Positions 21,530-57,641 of a stretch of 64,000 nt of DNA are shown piece by piece (position 1 is the stretch's first letter; each line of letters opens with the position of its first letter). The DNA lies in the NCBI GenBank assembly GCA_001919865.1, contig MNIR01000051.1, forward strand, positions 91,920 to 155,919, read 5' to 3'. This DNA is from Gemmatimonadetes bacterium 13_1_20CM_4_69_16. GTDB lineage: Bacteria > Gemmatimonadota > Gemmatimonadetes > Gemmatimonadales > GWC2-71-9. The notes below the pieces were generated by a model. That model ran no database searches. It worked only from the letters and a program-made list of their open reading frames with translations, and was not told where the DNA came from. The translations under genes were made by a program, and so were the position numbers.

Positions 21530-23618
<2,089 letters not shown>

Positions 23619-30290: not shown

Positions 30291-31253
30291 ATGACCGCGC
30301 CCATCCTCGTGCTCGACCGGGTCACCAAGCGCTTCGCCGGCCATACCGCGGTCGACGGCCTGTCACTCTCGGTCCGGGCCGGTGTGATCTTCGGCCTGCT
30401 TGGCCCCAACGGCGCCGGCAAGACCACCTCGATTCGCGTCATCATGGACATCTTCCAGCCGGATGAGGGCAGCGTCCAGCTGTTCGGGGAGCGGGCGGGG
30501 AGGGACCACTCGGCGCGCATCGGCTACCTGCCGGAGGAGCGCGGACTATACCCGCGGATGCGAGTGCTCGACGTCCTCGTGTTCCTCGCCGAGGTGAAGG
30601 GCGTCCCGCGCCGCGCCGCCCGCCTCAGAGCGCTCGAATGGCTCGACCGGCTCGGGCTGGGCGACTGGCGGCTGCGCCGCGTGAACGAGCTCTCGAAGGG
30701 GATGCAACAGAAGGTGCAGTTCATCTCCACGATGCTGCACGATCCCGATCTCGTGATTCTCGACGAGCCGTTTTCGGGGCTCGATCCGGTGAACGCACAG
30801 GTGATGAAGGATACGGTGCTGGAACTGCGCCGGCGCGGGAAGACGATCCTCTTCTCGACGCACATCATGGAGCAAGCCGAGAAGCTGTGCGACGAGCTCT
30901 GCATCATCGCCCGAGGGAAGAAGCTCGTGGACGGCGCCCTCAGCGACATCAAGCGGACACGTGGCGGACACCATCTCGTCATCGGGTTCGACGGCAGTGC
31001 CGGTGGTGCGCAGCAAGTCTTCGCAGACAAGGGGCTTGTGAAGCGGGTCGACGACTATGGGCAATACGCCGAGCTTGAGCTTGCGGCCGGGGCGGACGCC
31101 CAGCAGATCCTGCAGCGGCTCGTCGCCTCCGGCGCCCGGCTGTCGCGGTTCGAGCTGATGGAGCCCTCGCTCAACAAAATATTCATCGACCTGGTAGGGC
31201 CCGAGGCGGCTCGGGCGGAGGCGCGGCCCGAAGGGCAGGCTGTCCATGCGTAG
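30291..31253 (+). CDS. ABC transporter ATP-binding protein (ABC-2 / NatA-like)
   Basis: ATG at 30291 within track ORF 29919..31253. 'GLLGPNGAGKTT', 'LSKGMQQKVQF', 'LVILDEPFSGLD'. Confidence 0.9.
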   Translation: MTAPILVLDRVTKRFAGHTAVDGLSLSVRAGVIFGLLGPNGAGKTTSIRVIMDIFQPDEGSVQLFGERAGRDHSARIGYLPEERGLYPRMRVLDVLVFLAEVKGVPRRAARLRALEWLDRLGLGDWRLRRVNELSKGMQQKVQFISTMLHDPDLVILDEPFSGLDPVNAQVMKDTVLELRRRGKTILFSTHIMEQAEKLCDELCIIARGKKLVDGALSDIKRTRGGHHLVIGFDGSAGGAQQVFADKGLVKRVDDYGQYAELELAAGADAQQILQRLVASGARLSRFELMEPSLNKIFIDLVGPEAARAEARPEGQAVHA

Positions 31254-32511
31254 GGTGTGGGCGGTGGTGCGGCGGGAGTTCGTCGAACGGGTCCGCAAGA
31301 AGTCGTTCTGGGTGATGGCGCTGCTCGGCCCCTTGTTCTTCGCGGCCGTCTTCCTGATGCCGCTCCTCATGTCTCGTGGCGGCGGCGTCAAGCGCCTGGC
31401 GCTGGTTGACCGGACCACGACCACGCTCGGCGCCGTCGTCGCGGCGCGGCTCGACTCGACCCAGCGGTTTTTCGTCGTGCGCCGCCTGTCGGGCGGAGCG
31501 AGCGTGGAAGATTCGCTGGCGCGTGAAGTCGGGCTGAAGAGCATCGATGGGTTTCTCGTCCTGTCGGACTCGCTCACCCAGACGGGCGTCGCGCAATACC
31601 GGGCCTCCAACGTTTCGTCGCTCGATGATATCGGGCTGTTGCGGGAGACGCTGGGGCGGCTGGCGGAGCGCGCGCGTTTGGAGCGCGCCGGCGTCGATCC
31701 GACCATGGTGGCTCGGGCCCAGATCCGGGTGTCGCTCGACACCAAGAAGATCACCGGCGGACGCACGACCGAGGAGAGCGCTGGCCAGTCGTTCTCGCTC
31801 GCGTATTTCATGATGCTGATCCTCTACATCTCGCTGTTGCTGTACGGCGTGCAGGTCATGGGTTCGGTGATCGAAGAGAAGACGTCGCGCGTCATCGAGG
31901 TCCTCGTGAGCTCCCTCAAGCCGTTCCAGCTGCTGCTCGGCAAGCTGCTCGGCGTCGGCGCGGTCTCGCTGGTGCAGTTTGCGATTTGGGGCATGTCGGG
32001 CCGACTGCTGCTTGGCCAGCGGGCAGCGCTGGTGAGCCGAATGGGGGGTGTCGACCCGGAGGTCGGCCAGGTCTTCCAGGTTCCTCATGTGTCCGGCGCG
32101 ACGGCTCTCGTTTTCATAGCGTTCTTCCTGGGCGGCTTCTTCCTGTACTCCGCGATGTTCGCCGCCGTCGCCGCCACCTGCTCCACCGAGCAGGAGGCGC
32201 GCCAGAGCCAGGTGCCGGTCACGGTCCTGATCATGATCGCGTTCTTCGGCTCCTTCGCCACGCTCGCCAACCCGGAGTCGCGGCTCGCCGTCACGCTGTC
32301 GCTCGTCCCGTTCACCTCGCCGATCGCGACTCCGGCGCGGTGGGCGGCCGGCAATCTCTCGGCCCTGGACGTGATCGCGTCGCTCGCGTTGCTGCTGGCG
32401 GGGACCCTCGTGGTCACGTGGATTGCTGCGAGGATCTATCGCGTCGGAATCCTTATGACGGGGAAGCGGCCGAACGCCAGAGAGCTGTTGAGGTGGATCA
32501 GGACTGCCTAG
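31246..32511 (+). CDS. ABC-2 type transporter permease (NatB-like)
   Basis: 421 aa. N-terminal TM, a large extracytoplasmic loop, then a 5-6 TM bundle. Overlaps the ATPase gene by 8 nt. Confidence 0.8.
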   Translation: MRRVWAVVRREFVERVRKKSFWVMALLGPLFFAAVFLMPLLMSRGGGVKRLALVDRTTTTLGAVVAARLDSTQRFFVVRRLSGGASVEDSLAREVGLKSIDGFLVLSDSLTQTGVAQYRASNVSSLDDIGLLRETLGRLAERARLERAGVDPTMVARAQIRVSLDTKKITGGRTTEESAGQSFSLAYFMMLILYISLLLYGVQVMGSVIEEKTSRVIEVLVSSLKPFQLLLGKLLGVGAVSLVQFAIWGMSGRLLLGQRAALVSRMGGVDPEVGQVFQVPHVSGATALVFIAFFLGGFFLYSAMFAAVAATCSTEQEARQSQVPVTVLIMIAFFGSFATLANPESRLAVTLSLVPFTSPIATPARWAAGNLSALDVIASLALLLAGTLVVTWIAARIYRVGILMTGKRPNARELLRWIRTA

Positions 32512-32512
32512 G

Positions 32513-33048
32513 CAAGGCAAGAGCTAGACGCACAGACGCACTGCGGTAAGCAGAGACGGCGAGTAAGCGGGGTACGACCTGCGCCAGAATGATGCCGCAC
32601 GCTGTCCCTCAATTGGCCATCTTCGTAGCGTGCCAATCCACCACACCCTCAAGGCGTGGCAACACGCGCAGCGACTTGCCGTCGAATGCGCCAAAGCCGC
32701 CAACCGGTTCCCGGACTTCGAGCAGCAAGCGCTTGCGGACCAGCTGCGACGAGCCTGCTACAGCATCCCGCTGAACATCGCAGAAGGCACGACCCGGAAG
32801 GGGACTCGGGACTATCGCAAGTTCCTTGATACGGCGTGGGGCTCTCTTGCCGAGGTCCAGACAGCGCTCGCCATCGCGCGGGACGTAGGCTATCTCCAGC
32901 TCCCCGAATTTGCACGGCTGGAGGCGCTGGCAACGGAGACGAGCAAGACTTTGTTCGGGCTCCTTAGAAAGATCAGTCAGGCTTCCGATCGGCCCAAATC
33001 CCACTGACTGTTCGGTGCGGTGCGCCTGCGCGTCTAGCCTTTGCCTTG
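32513..33048 (+). repeat. Inverted-repeat cassette (about 40-nt arms) enclosing the four-helix-bundle gene. Same repeat family as 47879-47980.
   Basis: Core arms 32523-32553 and 33008-33038 are complementary at 23/31 positions, plus 4 G-U on the + strand. The outer extension 32513-32521 / 33040-33048 adds 8 Watson-Crick and 1 G-U pairs. The left core is 27/31 identical to 47882-47912. Confidence 0.7.
32630..33007 (+). CDS. Four-helix-bundle protein (23S rRNA intervening-sequence protein / Avd-like family)
   Basis: 125 aa, GTG start. 'LKAWQHAQRLAVECAKAANRFPDFEQQALADQLRRACYSIPLNIAEGTTRKGTRDYRKFLDTAWGSLAEVQTALAIARDVGYL' matches the family hallmark (...lr.qi.RaavSi.sNIAEG..r.s..df..fl.iA.GSl.El.t.l.la...). 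Confidence 0.88.
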   Translation: MPIHHTLKAWQHAQRLAVECAKAANRFPDFEQQALADQLRRACYSIPLNIAEGTTRKGTRDYRKFLDTAWGSLAEVQTALAIARDVGYLQLPEFARLEALATETSKTLFGLLRKISQASDRPKSH

Positions 33049-33070
33049 GGTGTTCACTAAGCTTTTTAGA

Positions 33071-34939
33071 ATGTCCTGTGACTACGATGTTCTGGTCGTT
33101 GGCGCCGGTCATGCCGGCACCGAGGCCGCTGTTATGTCCGCGCGCCTCGGCGCGCAGACTCTGCTCCTCACCTCCAACCTCGATACCATCGGCCAGATGA
33201 GCTGCAATCCCGCGATCGGGGGGATTGCGAAGGGTACCGTGGTCCGCGAGATCGACGCGCTGGGCGGCGTCATGGGCCGCGCCACCGACCGCGCGACGAT
33301 TCAGTTCCGCATGCTCAATCGGTCGAAGGGACCGGCGGTGTGGGCGCCGCGGGCGCAGTGCGATCGCACGCTGTACCGGCGGTCGGTGCGACAGTTGCTC
33401 GAGACGTTTCCGCGTCTCGAGCTCGCGCAAGGGATGGTGACGCGGCTGCGCATCGACGGTGCGCGTGCCAGCGGGATTGAGACGGCCGACGGGCGTGGCT
33501 TCACCGCGCGGGCGGTGATCCTCACGGCGGGTACGTTCTTGCGCGGCCGAATTCACCTCGGCATGGACACGCAGATCGCGGCGGGTCGGGCGGGCGATGC
33601 GCCCGCGGTCGATATAGCGCAACACATTGAGTCACTTGGACTTACAGTGTCGCGCTTCAAGACCGGCACGCCGCCCCGCGTGGACGGACGGACGGTCGAT
33701 TGGTCCCGGGTGGAGCGCCAGGACGGTGACGGGATCGGGTACCGTTTCTCGTTTTACGAGCGGGTCGAGCTGCCGCCTCAGCTACCGTGCTGGATCACGT
33801 GGGCCGGTGAAGCGGTGAAGGACATCATTAGCCGCCACCTCAAGGAGTCGGCGCTGTACGGCGGCGCGATCGCCTCGCGCGGTCCGCGCTACTGCCCGTC
33901 GGTCGAAGACAAGGTCGTCAAGTTCCCCGACGCGAAGCGGCATCAGGTCTTCCTCGAGCCGGAAGGGCTCGACACCCACGAGCTCTACGTCAACGGGCTG
34001 TCCACTTCCCTGCCCGTGGCCGTTCAACTCGAGTTTCTGCACGCGGTCCCTGGTCTCGAGCGGGCGAGGATGACGCGCCCGGGATACGCGATCGAGTACG
34101 ACTACTACCCGCCCACCCAGCTCACGCCGTGGCTGGAGACGAAGGCGATCGAGCATCTGTTTTTCGCAGGTCAGATCAACGGCACGACCGGGTACGAGGA
34201 GGCAGCAGGCCAGGGCGTCGTAGCGGGGATCAACGCGGTGCGTCGCCTGCGGGGCGAGGAGCCCGTGCTGTTCGGTCGAGACGAGGCGTACCTCGGCGTG
34301 CTGGTGGACGACCTGGTCACGCGCGGGGTGGATGAGCCCTACCGGCTGTTCACGTCACGATCGGAGTTCCGGCTGCTGCTGCGGCAGGACAATGCGCTGC
34401 GCCGCCTCCTCCCACTGGGGGAGCGGCTGGGCCTCCTGACGTCGGCGGAGCTGAGCGTTGCCGAGGGACGCTTGCAAGACGAGGAGCGGCTCCTCGCCAC
34501 GGCGCGGACCACGAGCATAACTCCCCGCCAAGCCGCGCCCGTGGTTGGGCCATCGGGGACTGAACTGGCGGAGCCCACGCGGGTGGCGAGCGTCGTGCGT
34601 CGACCGGGCGTGTCACTGCGGGGGCTGCTGGAGGCGGCGGGCGTGACAGTGACGTGTGACGACGGCATCTTGGCGAGCGCGGAGATCGAGCTCAAATACG
34701 ACGGTTATCTGGCGCGCGAGCGCCAGGCTGCCGGCCGGCTCGCTGAGCTCGCCTCGTTCGTGCTGCCGGTCGAGCTTCCCTATCTCGAGCTGCAAAGTCT
34801 AGCAACCGAGGCCAGGCAAAAGCTGGATCGGGTCCGTCCCACATCGCTCGCCCAGGCGGCGCGGATCCCGGGAGTCTCCCCCAGCGACCTGCACAACCTC
34901 GTGGTCGAGACAGCGCGGTGGCGCCGACGAGTAGCGTGA
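33071..34939 (+). CDS. mnmG: tRNA uridine-5-carboxymethylaminomethyl(34) synthesis enzyme MnmG (GidA)
   Basis: ATG at 33071 (MSCDYDVLVVGAGHAGTEAA). 'SCNPAIGGIAKG', 'GPRYCPSVEDK', 'FFAGQINGTTGYEEAA'. Confidence 0.95.
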   Translation: MSCDYDVLVVGAGHAGTEAAVMSARLGAQTLLLTSNLDTIGQMSCNPAIGGIAKGTVVREIDALGGVMGRATDRATIQFRMLNRSKGPAVWAPRAQCDRTLYRRSVRQLLETFPRLELAQGMVTRLRIDGARASGIETADGRGFTARAVILTAGTFLRGRIHLGMDTQIAAGRAGDAPAVDIAQHIESLGLTVSRFKTGTPPRVDGRTVDWSRVERQDGDGIGYRFSFYERVELPPQLPCWITWAGEAVKDIISRHLKESALYGGAIASRGPRYCPSVEDKVVKFPDAKRHQVFLEPEGLDTHELYVNGLSTSLPVAVQLEFLHAVPGLERARMTRPGYAIEYDYYPPTQLTPWLETKAIEHLFFAGQINGTTGYEEAAGQGVVAGINAVRRLRGEEPVLFGRDEAYLGVLVDDLVTRGVDEPYRLFTSRSEFRLLLRQDNALRRLLPLGERLGLLTSAELSVAEGRLQDEERLLATARTTSITPRQAAPVVGPSGTELAEPTRVASVVRRPGVSLRGLLEAAGVTVTCDDGILASAEIELKYDGYLARERQAAGRLAELASFVLPVELPYLELQSLATEARQKLDRVRPTSLAQAARIPGVSPSDLHNLVVETARWRRRVA

Positions 34940-34949
34940 GTCGGTAGTA

Positions 34950-34965
34950 TGTTTCACGTGAAACG
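34950..34965. promoter_or_regulatory. parS centromere-like site 1
   Basis: tGTTTCACGTGAAACg is a 14/16 match to the consensus TGTTTCACGTGAAACA, with a perfect 14-bp palindromic core. Confidence 0.9.
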
Positions 34966-34971
34966 TCGCCT

Positions 34972-34987
34972 AGTTTCACGTGAAACG
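34972..34987. promoter_or_regulatory. parS centromere-like site 2
   Basis: aGTTTCACGTGAAACg, a second identical 14-bp core 22 nt downstream of site 1 and about 90 nt upstream of parA. Confidence 0.9.
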
Positions 34988-35073
34988 GACTCTTTACCAC
35001 AGTTGTCCCGCGACGTATATTTCAGCCCTGATTGCCGCCCAACTATATAACTCATTGTGATATAAACAGTTAG

Positions 35074-35907
35074 ATGATGTCCCGTGTGATAGCTGTCGCC
35101 AACCAGAAGGGCGGTGTCGGGAAGACCACCACCGCCGTGAACCTCGCTGCGTCCCTCGCGACCGCCGAGCGCAAGACGCTGCTGGTGGACGCCGACCCCC
35201 AGGCGAACTCGACCAGCGGTGTCGGGATCGAGCGCGACCGCATCCGACACTCACTGTACGACGCGTTGCTCGACGGCCGGCCCCTCGCGGATACTCGCTT
35301 CGCCCACGTGCACTTCCCCTATCTCGACGTGGTACCGGCGACACAGGACTTGGTCGGCGCGGAGCTGGAGCTCGTCAACAAGCAAGCGCGCGAGACGATG
35401 ATGCGGCGCGCGCTGCGCGACATCCGTGATCAATACCAGTACGTCATCATCGACTGTCCTCCGTCGTTGGGCCTGCTCACCCTTAACATGCTCACGGCGT
35501 CGGACAGCGTGCTAATCCCGATTCAGTGCGAGTACTATGCGCTCGAAGGGCTCTCGCAACTGCTCAACACCGTCAAGCTGGTGCAACGGAACTTCAACGC
35601 CGCACTCGCGATCGACGGCGTGCTGTTGACCATGTTCGACGCGCGCTTGAATCTCTGCAAGCAGGTGGCCGAGGAGGCGAAGGAGTACTTCGGCTCGCAG
35701 ATGTTCGGCATCACCATTCCCCGGAACGTGCGGCTCGCAGAAGCCCCGAGCTTCGGTAAGCCGATTCTGTTATACGATGTCCAGTCGGTGGGTGCGAAGA
35801 GCTACTTGGCCGTGGCGCAGGAGCTGATCGGCCGTGTCGAGCGCGCCGTCGCGCCCGTCTCCCCTGCCCCGCCCACCGCTGAACCGCTGCCGGAGGTGCC
35901 CGCATGA
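35074..35907 (+). CDS. parA: Chromosome partitioning ATPase ParA (Soj)
   Basis: 'VIAVANQKGGVGKTTTAVNLAASLA' is the deviant Walker A. 277 aa. Confidence 0.95.
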   Translation: MMSRVIAVANQKGGVGKTTTAVNLAASLATAERKTLLVDADPQANSTSGVGIERDRIRHSLYDALLDGRPLADTRFAHVHFPYLDVVPATQDLVGAELELVNKQARETMMRRALRDIRDQYQYVIIDCPPSLGLLTLNMLTASDSVLIPIQCEYYALEGLSQLLNTVKLVQRNFNAALAIDGVLLTMFDARLNLCKQVAEEAKEYFGSQMFGITIPRNVRLAEAPSFGKPILLYDVQSVGAKSYLAVAQELIGRVERAVAPVSPAPPTAEPLPEVPA

Positions 35908-36794
35908 CGGAAACCATTGCCGGTCGCCGTCGTCTCGGTCGGGGGCTCGAGGCCCTGCTGGGACCGACTCGCGAGCAAGCCGAGCGCGAAGGGAGCTTGG
36001 TCGAGCTGGCGATCGCCGACATTCGCCCCAACCCCTACCAGCCGCGCCGGGACGTCGACCCGACGGCGCTGGACGAGCTCAAGGCCTCGATTCTGAAAGC
36101 GGGTCTGCTGCAGCCGGTGGTGGTGCGAGCGGCCCCAGGAAACGGCGGCTACGAACTGATCGCGGGCGAGCGGCGGCTGCGCGCCTGCCAGGCGCTCGGG
36201 TGGGAGCGGATCCCCGCGGTGAAGCGCGACGTGGACGACCGCACGGTGCTCACGCTCGCGCTGATCGAGAACCTGCAACGTGACGACCTCTCGCCCGTGG
36301 ACGAAGCACGCGGCTACGAGCGCCTGATCGCTGAGTTCAGTCTGACCCAGCAGGGCGTGGCGGACGCCGTGGGACGCGACCGCTCCACGGTCGCCAACGC
36401 CCTGCGCCTCCTCAAGCTCCCGGCCCTAGTGCTCGGGCTGCTCCACGAAGGACGGCTCTCGGTCGGGCACGCTCGCGCACTGCTCGCGCTGGACGACGCG
36501 CGCGCCGTGACGGCACTCGCGAAGGAGGCGGTCGATCTCGGGCTCTCGGTGCGCGACGTCGAGGATCGCGCCCGGGGGGGCCGGGCGCCGGTGCGCCGGC
36601 CTCGTCTCAAACAAGGGCTCGGCCAGGCGCCGGAGGTGCGTCGCATCGAGGATGCGTTGCGCCGCCGGCTGGGCACCGACGTGCGGGTGACGCTGCGCGC
36701 CAAAGGAAAGGGGCAGATTCATGTCAACTTCTATTCGAACGACGACCTGGCACGCTTGCTCGAGCTGATCCTTGGAGCGCCGTTCGACGGATGA
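35904..36794 (+). CDS. parB: Chromosome partitioning protein ParB (Spo0J)
   Basis: 'IRPNPYQPRRDVD', 'GYELIAGERRLRA' (ParB box II) and 'ENLQRDDLSPVDEA'. ATGA overlap with parA. Confidence 0.95.
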   Translation: MTETIAGRRRLGRGLEALLGPTREQAEREGSLVELAIADIRPNPYQPRRDVDPTALDELKASILKAGLLQPVVVRAAPGNGGYELIAGERRLRACQALGWERIPAVKRDVDDRTVLTLALIENLQRDDLSPVDEARGYERLIAEFSLTQQGVADAVGRDRSTVANALRLLKLPALVLGLLHEGRLSVGHARALLALDDARAVTALAKEAVDLGLSVRDVEDRARGGRAPVRRPRLKQGLGQAPEVRRIEDALRRRLGTDVRVTLRAKGKGQIHVNFYSNDDLARLLELILGAPFDG

Positions 36795-37579
36795 AGCAGA
36801 AAAGCGTCACCATCGTCGTCCATAAAGATCGGGAGCTCGAGTCCCATCAGTATCGCGTGCCGCTGTGGGCGTTCGAAATGGGGAAGTGGACGGCCGCTGC
36901 CATCGCGGTGCTGGTGGTGCTGTTCTTCTTGTTCGCCGGACCGATCACGCGGAATGCCGTACGAGCCCAGTTGCTCGACCGAGAAGTGGCGCGGTTGCAG
37001 CGGGAGAACAGCCGCGTGCAACAACTCGCCGCGGCCCTGAACCGGGCGGAGGCGAACTACCAGGAGCTGCGTCAGTTGCTCGGCGTGAAGGCCCCGCCGG
37101 AAAAAGTCGTCGTGACGGCTGACCTGATGCGCGCGCTGCCCGTCCTGGCACGGGCGCCCCGCGCGCCGACGCGGTTCGAGCCCGACTCCGCGACGCCGCT
37201 CCATTGGCCGTTAGATGTTGTCGGCTTCGTGACCCGCGGTCAGGTACGGCCGGGCGATCCCGCCGAGTCCCACCCCGGGATCGACATCGCGGTGCCGGCG
37301 GGGACGCCAGTACGCGCCGCCGGTGCCGGGCTCGTGGCCCAGGCGGCCACGGATCCCGCCTACGGGCTGTTCGTGCTCTTGCGGCACACCGGCGGATATG
37401 AGACGATGTATGGGCACGCCTCGCGCCTACTGGTGCGCGAAGGCGATTCGGTAGCGTCCGGACAAGTGGTGGCTCTCTCCGGCAGCTCCGGGCGGTCGAC
37501 GGCGCCACACCTCCATTTCGAGATCCGCCGCGAGGGCAAGTCGCTGGACCCCCTCACGGTCGTGAAACAGGAGAATTGA
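36791..37579 (+). CDS. M23 family metallopeptidase (LytM-type) with N-terminal TM and coiled coil
   Basis: 'HPGIDIAVPAGTPVRAAGAG' and 'GSSGRSTAPHLHFEI' are the HxxxD / HxH motifs. ATGA overlap with parB. Confidence 0.88.
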   Translation: MKQKSVTIVVHKDRELESHQYRVPLWAFEMGKWTAAAIAVLVVLFFLFAGPITRNAVRAQLLDREVARLQRENSRVQQLAAALNRAEANYQELRQLLGVKAPPEKVVVTADLMRALPVLARAPRAPTRFEPDSATPLHWPLDVVGFVTRGQVRPGDPAESHPGIDIAVPAGTPVRAAGAGLVAQAATDPAYGLFVLLRHTGGYETMYGHASRLLVREGDSVASGQVVALSGSSGRSTAPHLHFEIRREGKSLDPLTVVKQEN

Positions 37580-46994: not shown

Positions 46995-47875
46995 TCGGGC
47001 CCCTCTTCCATCCCCGGCGTTACCCGCCCAGCCGCGACAGGCGCGCGCCTACCTTCGAGCGCGCGGTAAAAGTGCCGATCGGCTGGGTGGTGGAGCACCT
47101 GTGCGCGCCGCTGGCGCGTTGGAATGGGCGGTTGCTCCTGACGCCCGAGATCGGCGTCCCGATCGCCGGCCTGCTGCCGGAGCTGGACGGCTACCGCATC
47201 GCGCTCGCCACGGATCTCCACCGCGGCCCGGTGGTGCCGGCCTCCTGGCTGGCGCGTGTGGCGGACCGCATCAGCGAGCTCGTGCCTGACCTCGTCGCGC
47301 TCGGTGGGGATTTCGTGAGCCACGTGAAGCGTGACCTCGACGGACTCGAGTCCGTGCTGTCTCGGTTCCGCGCGCGCGACGGTGTGGTGGCTGTGCTCGG
47401 CAATCACGACCACTGGGTGGGGCCGGACGCGGTCAGTGCCGTGCTCGAGCGCGCCAGCGTTACGTTACTCACCAACCGCCACGTCCTCGTGCGGCGCGGC
47501 GCGGCTACCCTGGCCGTCGCCGGAGTGGATGACTTCACCCACGGCGCGATCCGTCCCGACGAGGCGCTCGCCGGTGTCGCGCCCGAGACCCCCCGCGTCC
47601 TGCTCTCTCATAATCCCGATCTCATCGAGTACCTCCCCGCCGGCCTGCGGGTGGACGTGATGCTGTCGGGGCACACGCACAACGGTCAGCTCCACCTGCC
47701 GTTGCTGGGCCCGCTCCTGGTGCCGTCGCAGTTCGGGGGGCGCTACATGCACGGCCTCAAGCGGGTCGGCGAGACGTGGCTGTACGTGTCGGCGGGGGTG
47801 GGGACCGCCGCCATCCCGATGAGATGGGGAAATCCACCCGAGTTACCAGTGATCAGGTTGGAGCGAACAGGATAA
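46991..47875 (+). CDS. Metallophosphoesterase
   Basis: GTG at 46991 (GTGA overlap) within track ORF 46442..47875. 'ATDLHRGP', 'LGGDFVSH', 'GNHDHW', 'SGHTHNGQ'. Confidence 0.85.
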   Translation: MIGPLFHPRRYPPSRDRRAPTFERAVKVPIGWVVEHLCAPLARWNGRLLLTPEIGVPIAGLLPELDGYRIALATDLHRGPVVPASWLARVADRISELVPDLVALGGDFVSHVKRDLDGLESVLSRFRARDGVVAVLGNHDHWVGPDAVSAVLERASVTLLTNRHVLVRRGAATLAVAGVDDFTHGAIRPDEALAGVAPETPRVLLSHNPDLIEYLPAGLRVDVMLSGHTHNGQLHLPLLGPLLVPSQFGGRYMHGLKRVGETWLYVSAGVGTAAIPMRWGNPPELPVIRLERTG

Positions 47876-47878
47876 GCC

Positions 47879-47980
47879 GCAGCTAGACGCGCAGACGCAC
47901 AGCGGTGAACAGTTCGAGTGAGCGGGCCCTTCCTGTTCACTACCACTGTTCACCGCTGTGCGTCTGTGCGTTTAGTCTGC
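47879..47980 (+). repeat. Long perfect hairpin: ORF-less member of the repeat family seen at 32513-33048
   Basis: Arms 47882-47912 and 47946-47976 pair at 31/31 positions on the + strand (28 Watson-Crick, 3 G-U). Three more bp follow after a 1-nt bulge. 33-nt loop. The hairpin starts 4 nt after the upstream stop codon. Confidence 0.85.
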
Positions 47981-48010
47981 CTGTCCTGAAACCGCATTCC
48001 TGCTCCCTAC

Positions 48011-56240: not shown

Positions 56241-57641
56241 ATGTCCCGCTGGCTGGCCGTCTTCCTTCTCATGGCGACAGGGCTCGCCGCGCAACAGCCG
56301 CCGAGCGCCCCGATGGACTCAGGCGCGGTCGCACGCGTTCTCGCCCTCCTCAAGACTTCCGACTCCACTGTCTGCGAGCTTGCGGGACAGGCCATCAGCA
56401 ACTCGTGGGGCTTCCCCTGGGAGCCGAGACTGTTGCCGACGCCCATGCCGATGCCCATGCCCACACCCATGCCGATGCCGATGGCGAGGCGCATGGGGAT
56501 CAGGGTGCCTCACATTCATGTACACGTGCACCACCCAGGGGACTGGCGTCGCGAGGACGCGACTATGTTGGGCGCGTTCCGCGCAGTGCTGCGCGACGAC
56601 AGCAGGTGCGTGCGGCACATCGCCGCGCGGGTGCTCGGCCGGGCGCGCTCGCCGGGGAGCTACGACGCGTTCCTCGCGCTATTGCGCGAGGCGAGCCCGG
56701 GCCTGCGAGAGACCGGAGCGCTCGGCCTCAGCGAGCTCGAGGACCGGCGCGCGCTGAGACCGCTCCAGGAGGCGCTGCGCGACCGGGATCCCGGCGTCCG
56801 CGCGATGGCGGCGCGCGGTGTGGGGGAAATCGCGGACTCGAGCTCGATTGCTGCGCTCGGCAAGCTGCTGGCGGACGACGCGATCCCGGTGCGGGAGGCC
56901 GCCGCGTGGGCGCTGGGCGAGATCGCAGGCACGCAGGCGATCGCGCCCCTGAGCCAGGCGCTGCGCGACCGCTCGCCGGAGGTGCGAGCGATGGCGGCCT
57001 GGGCGCTGGGCCAGATCGAGAGCCCGCGCTCCGTATCCGCGCTGGGCGACGCGCTGCGTGATCCCTCCCCCCGGGTGCGGCGCGCGACCGTCTGGGCGCT
57101 GGGACAAATCGCGGACGGGGACGCGGTCGACTTGTTGTTACCGCTGCTGCGTGACTCCGATTCAGACGTCAGAATGGCCGCCACGCACGCCCTGGGAGAA
57201 ATCGGGAGCCAGCGGGCGGTGCGCGGCCTCGGCACCCTGGTGCACGACGCGTCGCCTGAAGTCAGGCGCGCCGCGATCTGGGCGCTCGGCGACATTGGGG
57301 ACGGCAGCGCGCTCGAGGCATTGCAGGCCGCCCTCAAGGACGTCGACTCCGAGACCCGACAACTCGCTGCGTGGGCGCTGGGTGAGATCGGCAACGCCGA
57401 CGCGGTGGATCCCCTGGCGGCAGCCCTCAAGGACCGCGACGCAGAGGTGCGAGTGGCTGCGGCGTGGGGCCTGGGGCAGATCGAGAGCACCCGCGCGCGG
57501 GAGCCGCTCCGAGCGGCCCTCAACGACGAGGCCGGTGATGTGCAGGACGCCGCTCGCTGGGCGCTCGACCAGATGGGTGACGATGACGAGCGGCCGCTCG
57601 TGAAGACGCGGCCGCGCGTGCGGCTGAAGAGGCGGATCTGA
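56241..57641 (+). CDS. HEAT-repeat (PBS-lyase HEAT-like) protein with signal peptide and a Met/Pro/His-rich segment
   Basis: 466 aa. At least 9 repeats of the 31-aa unit 'D..VR..AAWALGEIG...A...L...L.D'. N-terminal 'LAVFLLMATGLAAQQ'. 'PTPMPMPMPTPMPMPM...HIHVHVHH'. Confidence 0.82.
   Translation: MSRWLAVFLLMATGLAAQQPPSAPMDSGAVARVLALLKTSDSTVCELAGQAISNSWGFPWEPRLLPTPMPMPMPTPMPMPMARRMGIRVPHIHVHVHHPGDWRREDATMLGAFRAVLRDDSRCVRHIAARVLGRARSPGSYDAFLALLREASPGLRETGALGLSELEDRRALRPLQEALRDRDPGVRAMAARGVGEIADSSSIAALGKLLADDAIPVREAAAWALGEIAGTQAIAPLSQALRDRSPEVRAMAAWALGQIESPRSVSALGDALRDPSPRVRRATVWALGQIADGDAVDLLLPLLRDSDSDVRMAATHALGEIGSQRAVRGLGTLVHDASPEVRRAAIWALGDIGDGSALEALQAALKDVDSETRQLAAWALGEIGNADAVDPLAAALKDRDAEVRVAAAWGLGQIESTRAREPLRAALNDEAGDVQDAARWALDQMGDDDERPLVKTRPRVRLKRRI

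Follow-up and report, generated by a model that had tools for sequence, protein, structure and literature searches.

Why should a gene of the family classically encoded in the intervening sequences (IVSs) of 23S rRNA stand between two protein-coding genes, enclosed by the arms of a long inverted repeat? The question arises from a stretch of 64,000 nucleotides of Gemmatimonadetes bacterium 13_1_20CM_4_69_16 (contig MNIR01000051.1), the whole of which is here called the window, where an open reading frame (ORF) for a 125-aa protein lies between the genes for an ABC-2 family permease and MnmG. We read this gene and its arms as an inherited cassette of the rRNA-IVS type, settled in an operon-like gap, whose stem would form in the operon transcript and be cut there by RNase III; we give this reading a probability of roughly 0.55. 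The evidence that carries it is the selection on the gene and its fixed place, the co-variation of the arms, and the recurrence of the same layout around distant members of the gene family.

The gene, its stem and their inheritance

The features of the locus are listed by position, strand and basis.

31246 to 32511, plus strand: gene for an ABC-2 family permease, upstream (PF12698, E 8.7e-44)
32513 to 32553, plus strand: left arm of the long-range stem, outer part 32513-32521 and core 32523-32553 (inverted-repeat search, RNAduplex, covariation)
32554 to 32629, plus strand: leader of 76 nt, from the left arm to the start codon (motifs conserved in the orthologue alignment)
32630 to 33007, plus strand: four-helix-bundle gene, GTG start, 125 aa, superfamily of the 23S-IVS protein, S23p and Avd (PF05635, TIGR02436, 2GSC, AlphaFold2 model, Foldseek, substitution rates)
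33008 to 33048, plus strand: right arm of the stem (inverted-repeat search, RNAduplex, covariation)
33071 to 34939, plus strand: mnmG (gidA), downstream (PF01134, E 1.9e-155)

Profile searches place the ORF in PF05635 (23S_rRNA_IVP; E 2.7e-30, 105.2 bits against a cut-off of 33.8) and in TIGR02436 (E 1.9e-28, 98.8 bits against a cut-off of 24), with no Pfam match besides PF05635, which bears out the family that a preliminary description, made from the letters alone, had proposed. By sequence, the nearest protein of known structure is Xcc0516 (PDB 2GSC; E 2.9e-17, phmmer). A single-sequence AlphaFold2 monomer model has four helices (pLDDT 88.5, pTM 0.83). The top Foldseek matches of this model are 2GSC (TM 0.81-0.91) and 2RLD (TM 0.77-0.90), the latter being BT_0352 of the 'S23 ribosomal protein family', matched by the modelled fold; next comes Avd inside the ribonucleoprotein 8UB7 of a diversity-generating retroelement (DGR), at TM 0.73-0.85 and about 10% sequence identity. 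Among orthologues the ratio of nonsynonymous to synonymous substitution (dN/dS) is 0.02-0.15, with dS saturated, and the gene is under strong purifying selection. The GC content at its third codon positions is 0.74, versus 0.82-0.89 in the neighbouring genes.

The Avd-like fold, and the report that PF05635 is the commonest family beside DGR reverse transcriptases (PMC10053308), would fit a gene left behind by a DGR as its Avd accessory protein. Yet tblastn with two reverse transcriptase queries (E <= 1, a search of limited sensitivity) finds no reverse-transcriptase-like ORF in the 64 kb, no template/variable repeat pair lies near the gene, the orthologous loci hold permease, cassette and mnmG alone, and the identity to Avd is low. 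We give a DGR remnant next to no credence, in agreement with the preliminary description, which had seen no DGR here.

The cassette fits closely between its neighbours: the TAG stop of the permease gene ends 1 nt before the stem, and the ATG of mnmG at 33071, whose position aligns in orthologues, stands 22 nt past it. An inverted-repeat search returned arms at 32513-32544 and 33017-33048 (32 nt, 84% complementary, 472 nt apart). Over the full arms, the core (32523-32553 with 33008-33038) has 23 Watson-Crick pairs, 4 G-U pairs and 4 mismatches (n = 31), and the outer 9 nt (32513-32521 with 33040-33048) add 8 Watson-Crick pairs and one G-U pair. These counts are identical to those first given for the locus, and the likeness then drawn to an rRNA IVS holds in that the insert, with its ORF, is enclosed by a stem of terminal inverted repeats. 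The left-arm core contains, after CTAG, two 8-nt units (ACGCACAG twice). The right arm begins right at the TGA stop, as it begins exactly at the stop codon in all orthologues, and carries CTGTTC..GCGTCTAG, which is conserved in the family, followed by CCTTTGCC. RNAduplex assigns the two arms -67 kcal/mol, and the long-range stem is closed in the predicted fold of the entire 552-nt element (z = -2.7 versus shuffles). A 19-nt core of the arm occurs four times in the window at up to 3 mismatches, versus 0.02 occurrences expected.

In 13 orthologues the arm duplexes range from -61 to -95 kcal/mol. For a covariation test, 11 orthologues were aligned without gaps, anchored on the CTAG ends (44 pairs), and compared with 500 shuffles. 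Paired cells make up 85.1%, versus 78.3% in the shuffles (0/500 as high) and 30-45% in slid controls, and 21 pairs are changed on both sides, versus 11.7 +/- 2.0 (again 0/500 as high). Whole units change on both arms together, as in L123, where ACGCACAG is replaced by ACGGATAG. The arms co-vary across orthologues, and the stem is kept.

To follow the arms through other genomes, a degenerate arm pattern was scanned in one genome per species, and 8-kb pieces around the matches were taken. The pattern occurs at no fewer than 115 loci, that is, at least 115, in 48 assemblies, of which 47 are Gemmatimonadota and one (L087) is labelled Candidatus Angelobacter; the last could be either binning contamination or a true occurrence outside Gemmatimonadota. 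Among the loci listed, the gene is present only in L006, L017, L034 and L110, which are orthologous to the window locus with flanks 73-77% identical at the nucleotide level. A metagenome scan with protein alignment yielded 578 relatives of the four-helix-bundle protein, and each of the 12 at 65-93% identity (L116-L127) is placed between this permease and mnmG as far as its contig extends to them. The permease is upstream in 15 of the 16 close relatives and mnmG is downstream in 15 of the 16, the contigs of L034 and L126 ending before the permease and before mnmG, respectively. Identity across the orthologous loci is mostly 50-60% for the permease, 77-92% for MnmG and 65-94% for the small protein. 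L003 (2176-2275) is the same locus without the ORF, with the right arm alone left directly after the permease stop.

No second PF05635 gene occurs in the 64-kb window, and in the viral and plasmid collections searched there is neither arm nor cassette in viral contigs and no cassette in plasmids. The cassette is a vertically inherited, old and selected resident, not a roaming one. A mobile ORF-bearing cassette, one of the possibilities first raised, is not supported, given the single syntenic locus in the window and all 16 close relatives and the low dN/dS. Paralogues have enclosing repeats of their own: the one in L108 (58% identical; same assembly as L017) has its own repeat type, and the one in L074 (33% identical) likewise its own repeats. 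The L108 paralogue is present at its site also in L128 and L129 and absent from the orthologous site in L019, L039, L080 and L001. Within 882 kb of Gemmatimonadales loci the paralogue arm types have no further copies, except that about 500 nt from the L129 paralogue there is an ORF-less hairpin of the L129 type.

Enclosure of PF05635 genes elsewhere

Enclosure was scored in the 76 metagenome loci with enough flank: 300 nt upstream of the ORF were compared with 200 nt downstream of it, and the best inverted repeat without gaps was taken. The null was built by pairing flanks across different loci (mean 8.1, 95th percentile 11, 99th percentile 17). An enclosing inverted repeat scoring at least 12 is found in 59/76 PF05635 loci and one scoring at least 17 in 42/76; the 64 distant relatives among them (33-49% identity) contribute 48 and 34, respectively. 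The arms consist of short units in tandem, with a period of 7 in 30 of the 37 clear cases and of 8 in the other 7, and downstream of the ORF the upstream array returns as its reverse complement. Such arrays are (AGATGTC)n (L162), (GCGAGTG)n (L170) and (GACGGAAG)4 (L138); the window arm, with its two ACGCACAG units, is of the same design. In cultured organisms, too, the layout occurs: plasmid 1 of Gemmatirosa kalamazoonensis has (GGGCAGGA)n on one side of the gene and (TCCTGCCC)n on the other, and in a type I-D cas operon on pANA02 of Anabaena sp. 90 (L197, 38056-38888) the gene has cas6 and cas4 as its neighbours, with (GGTGACA)n arrays flanking it. The same plasmid has a further array at 37396-37416, between cas1d and cas4, and, apart from this gene, a DGR whose avd is annotated. 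In 5/34 distant loci the local arm also has copies without an ORF near the cassette, one of them in L151 (below).

Sites in 23S rRNA are rare, at 2/40 PF05635 loci by Rfam and 2/80 by motif scan; the two, L151 and L153, are true 23S IVSs with the same array layout. The stem-plus-ORF layout is a trait of the gene family and not of rRNA, and the 23S IVS is a minority site. Two further observations concern RNA genes. L151 has, at 1431-1522, an ORF-less hairpin of the same CTAGAGA-type heptamers between the two spacer tRNA genes of its IVS-bearing rRNA operon, and in L152 (995-1128) the right arm of the cassette ends about 6 nt before a tmRNA gene (RF00023, 64.6 bits).

These counts bear on the idea, also raised in the preliminary description, that the window cassette is a relic of a 23S rRNA IVS transposed from rDNA into an intergenic region. 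The gene family and the stem-plus-ORF layout are indeed those of classical IVSs, and two true 23S IVSs occur among the relatives. But non-rRNA sites are the rule (38/40 by Rfam, 78/80 by motif scan), the locus is old and syntenic, and its arms match a local hairpin family outside rRNA, with none of the at least 115 arm-bearing loci listed lying in an rRNA operon. That no rRNA is nearby had been noted correctly: Rfam at gathering thresholds finds none in the 64-kb window, where its sole match is a thiamine pyrophosphate (TPP) riboswitch, and the orthologous loci have permease and mnmG there. We hold a relic of this kind to be very unlikely. Since non-rRNA sites dominate, the inference is reversed, and the 23S IVS becomes the special case of a general cassette.

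The dispersed hairpins

The arm had been seen to recur without an ORF 15 kb from the gene. It does so as a hairpin in its own right.

47870 to 47986, no strand assigned: ORF-less member of the arm repeat family, hairpin of about 100 nt, core arms 47883-47926 and 47932-47975 (folding, repeat search)

Its core at 47883-47975 is near-perfect (-88.5 kcal/mol, z = -14.8), and the hairpin sits between convergent genes, 7 nt past a stop codon. In the at least 115 arm loci the arm pairs into 79 short hairpins of this kind, with outer arm ends mostly 93-103 nt apart and a full stem-loop of 108 nt in the median; of the other arms, some 30 are halves of an element or face a partner that has diverged. The idea of a cassette or terminator module, as first sketched, therefore stands as far as the arm is concerned, which is a dispersed repeat. 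The number of 8-nt units per arm varies between copies, from 2 to 4 or more (L051 197-329, L073 1168-1266, L121, L125), which suggests slippage within the arms.

Gene context was taken from genes called with a codon-usage model trained on the long ORFs of the same loci. Not one of 72 hairpins lies within a gene; 22 are between convergent, 46 between tandem and 4 between divergent genes. The hairpin usually starts 12-17 nt past a stop codon, or else the TAG of its terminal CTAG supplies the stop. The 8 nt 3' of the core stem contain a mean of 3.0 T and the 8 nt 5' of it a mean of 3.0 A, with 1.3 expected. Orientation relative to gene direction has no bias (19 same, 27 opposite). G-U pairs were considered as a mark of plus-strand RNA and rejected, as the two strands of the 79 hairpins fold alike (-80.4 versus -80.6 kcal/mol) with 318 versus 322 G-U pairs.

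With this profile the short hairpins look like a bidirectional element for termination or 3'-end shaping, and most likely they act as terminators or as sites of 3'-end stabilisation or processing. The terminator module of the preliminary description finds partial support: the short form has the placement at stop codons and the A/T-rich flanks of a bidirectional terminator, but its tracts are short, and at the cassette a consensus terminator scan of 32300-33300 called none.

Some copies are old. L018 and L083 keep the hairpin at 47883-47975 in the orthologous place, with flanks that are 85% and 74% identical, respectively. Other sites are polymorphic, as one between genes shows: L039 and L128 have no hairpin there, L108 has one of the main family and L129 one of another family. 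Polymorphic insertion at orthologous sites thus exists beside copies conserved in place, and such presence and absence means that cassettes and hairpins turn over on an evolutionary time scale. Target-site duplications, which the preliminary description had brought up, do not emerge: direct repeats flanking the hairpins (n = 73) are not above a shifted control. Nor does a recurrent second gene, such as a transposase, adjoin the unpaired arms in the 8-kb pieces.

A single gene with inverted flanking copies amid many dispersed hairpins recalls the REPIN-RAYT systems, whose defining pattern, as Nunvar in 2010 and Bertels & Rainey in 2011 reportedly had it, combines a palindromic doublet in dispersed copies with one vertically inherited, selected gene that has the same sequence, inverted, on its flanks. 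On this explanation the hairpins would be non-autonomous DNA repeats, and the single-copy arm-flanked gene would encode a factor that binds, maintains or spreads them in trans, a four-helix-bundle protein replacing the tyrosine transposase of REP systems. Much agrees with it: the gene is vertically inherited and selected, the hairpins are strand-symmetric, half elements are common, hairpins come and go (as at the site that is empty in L039 and L128, filled in L108 and occupied by another family in L129), paralogues have their own arm types (L108) with an ORF-less L129-type hairpin near the L129 paralogue, and the arm sequence is nearly invariant while synonymous sites are saturated. However, the gene has no nuclease or recombinase fold, its top structural matches being Avd/S23p bundles; direct repeats are as frequent in shifted controls, leaving no target-site duplications; some hairpins are old and kept in place; the viral contigs and plasmids of the collections searched have no copies; and no other gene recurs next to unpaired arms in the 8-kb pieces. 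We regard such a DNA repeat system as unlikely and the IVS-type cassette as the better account of the locus.

Half elements also bear on what the bracket around the gene means. At L080 3989-4485 (orthologue L001) a left and a right half element bracket a CBS-domain gene that is resident there and to which the orthologues in L108 and L039 are 68-70% identical; the same intergenic site is empty in L019, holds a short hairpin in L039 and holds the paralogous four-helix-bundle cassette in L108, L128 and L129. At L093 5166-6033 arms bracket with precision the gene for a 268-aa PBP_like_2 lipoprotein, the left arm overlapping its GTG start and the right arm beginning at its stop, probably as two half elements after two converging stop codons. 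A general role of the arms as a bracket of gene cassettes was considered and rejected, the CBS gene being an ordinary resident for which two half elements after successive stop codons suffice.

The window bracket might be just as coincidental, an ordinary gene with an independent, half-decayed terminator after the permease stop and another after its own, and a long-range stem without function. Elements of the family are found after almost all kinds of stop codon, half elements are frequent, and the CBS and PBP genes are bracketed by the same arms. Coincidence is nevertheless at odds with the inverted-array enclosure in 59/76 loci against the permutation null, in unrelated lineages and with unrelated arms, and with arm complementarity kept through two-sided changes in 11 orthologues; against it, too, the paralogue in the same assembly has a private arm type, and the right arm starts at the stop codon throughout the orthologues. 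We find it quite improbable and return to the inherited IVS-type cassette.

Proposed processing in the transcript, and known systems

The cassette is probably transcribed together with the permease gene and mnmG, because the gaps on its two sides, 1 nt to the permease stop and 22 nt to the mnmG start codon, leave no room for a terminator or promoter. In the operon transcript the arms would close a double-stranded RNA stem of about 40-45 bp, and RNase III would cut it, to judge from experiments on 23S IVSs that encode this gene family. For the Coxiella IVS, which carries an S23p ORF, cleavage by RNase III in vitro is on record; its stem measures 28 bp and has heptamer repeats where the cut is made (PMC4990558). 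Cleavage would free the mRNA of the small gene, and the flanking transcripts would keep stem-derived ends. A cassette that excises itself in this way could reside harmlessly in any transcribed spot, whether rRNA, operons or 3' ends, which would explain the range of sites seen.

The leader has a say in this. Its motifs GGGTAC (32570-32575) and AGAATGAT (32586-32593; the AAATGAT motif) are kept in 13 aligned orthologues, in which RNAalifold predicts no consensus structure for the 76 nt, so that sequence motifs alone are conserved. A -10-like hexamer, CATCTT, lies at 32618-32623, 6 nt upstream of the GTG, and a hexamer of the form (T/C)AnnnT lies 5-8 nt upstream of the initiation codon in 14/14 orthologues; it is a possible internal promoter giving a leaderless mRNA. 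A consensus scan of 32300-33300 for sigma-70 promoters made no call. Ahead of the gene a Shine-Dalgarno sequence is not visible.

Several points weigh against an RNA cassette cut from the operon transcript. Co-transcription, formation of the stem in vivo and cleavage by RNase III are all steps that we infer. The conserved hexamer suggests a transcript that starts inside the cassette and is leaderless, in which case the left arm need not share an RNA with the ORF. The strand symmetry of the hairpins fits a palindrome acting at the DNA level as well as one acting in RNA. The arm covariation could stem from genome-wide homogenisation of the repeat instead of selection on pairing. The bracketed PBP_like_2 gene of L093 and CBS gene of L080/L001 mean that bracketing can arise from half elements after successive stop codons. 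And the T tract past the stem is short, at 3-4 T, and was not called by the terminator scan.

On its own transcript, and likewise on the dispersed hairpins, the 125-aa protein may bind the arms by their repeat units. We propose this speculatively, on three grounds: it is homologous to Avd and S23p, whose pentameric rings bind RNA; all arms are designed from tandem units; and the arm sequence is nearly invariant despite saturated synonymous sites. More broadly, and as a tentative idea that we hold at well under even odds, PF05635 genes with inverted arrays of 7-8-nt tandem units may form one widespread and so far unrecognised class of module. The protein of such a module, a pentamer, would read its units in RNA or in DNA, and thanks to the stem the module could reside in any transcript. 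It would shed satellite hairpins without an ORF, which genomes would reuse for termination or processing; repeat families particular to a lineage, among them the Gemmatimonadales hairpin and possibly the cyanobacterial short tandemly repeated repetitive (STRR) sequences, would be its products or clients. Were this so, the classical 23S rRNA IVS would be merely the most visible landing site.

The window has other features apart from the cassette. A TPP riboswitch lies at 22842-22942 on the minus strand (RF00059, 68.9 bits, E 1.9e-11). After mnmG comes a ParA-like ORF (35074-35907, with a KGGVGKTT Walker motif in its translation), whose end is overlapped by a further ORF, the run of genes covering 33071-36794; mnmG followed by a ParA-like gene is an order typical of origin-proximal regions. 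At 56781-57509 the repeat table has at least 5 tandem copies of a 93-nt (31-codon) repeat with 61-76% identity, in what looks like a gene for a repeat protein, its ...AAWALGEIG... motif suggesting the HEAT/PBS-lyase type.

The gene family, the architecture of IVSs and their processing by RNase III were known already. A full-text literature search, of incomplete coverage, found no description of this layout as the normal state of the family outside rRNA, of the tandem 7-8-mer arm design as a family trait, of a conserved and selected copy in a housekeeping operon, or of arms common to a genome-wide hairpin family. We know of no function or origin established since the early 1990s for the ORFs in 23S rRNA IVSs. 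The present locus shows that such a gene can have resided for long, and under strong selection, in an ordinary operon, with arms whose sequence is that of a genome-wide hairpin family, and this makes the question of IVS-ORF function testable, in a family that also supplies the Avd of DGRs. Even if the speculative steps fail, there remain a well-documented new repeat family of Gemmatimonadales and a correction of the rRNA-bound view of these genes.

Among known systems, the 23S IVSs with an S23p/PF05635 ORF (Coxiella, Leptospira, Xanthomonas, Brucella) share the gene family and the stem-closing terminal inverted repeats, and both have arms of tandem repeats, GACAGAT heptamers in Coxiella (PMC4990558) and ACGCACAG octamers in the window. 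They differ in that the window cassette lies outside rRNA, between two protein-coding genes, and has arms that recur in over 100 hairpins dispersed without an ORF, and that here RNase III would cut by analogy; the Coxiella ORF, moreover, is decaying (PMC4990558), whereas that of the window is under strong purifying selection.

REP/REPIN-RAYT systems are alike in their dispersed intergenic palindromic doublets with one vertically inherited gene flanked by inverted copies, and in their placement at gene 3' ends and rarity in divergent promoter regions; here, in contrast, the protein is a helical bundle and not a Y1 (IS200/IS605-like) transposase, and the arms are built of 8-nt tandem units. The Correia (nemis) elements of Neisseria are hairpin-forming miniature repeats processed by RNase III. 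These and bidirectional terminators resemble the hairpins as palindromes of about 100 nt at gene ends, with long mRNA hairpins, A- and T-rich flanks and an orientation independent of the gene, but the present family has no target-site duplication, a short T tract and one member with a conserved gene in its loop. Avd of DGRs belongs to the same fold superfamily, as a pentameric, RNA-contacting four-helix bundle; the window differs in lacking a reverse transcriptase and template/variable repeats, and in the identity of about 10%. Finally, STRR sequences are cyanobacterial heptamer repeats reportedly described by Mazel in 1990. The Nostocales relatives of the gene are flanked by heptamer arrays such as (GGTGACA)n, and while the Gemmatimonadales arms have 2-4 units only, the likeness points to a possible link between small four-helix-bundle genes and the unexplained tandem-heptamer repeats of several phyla.

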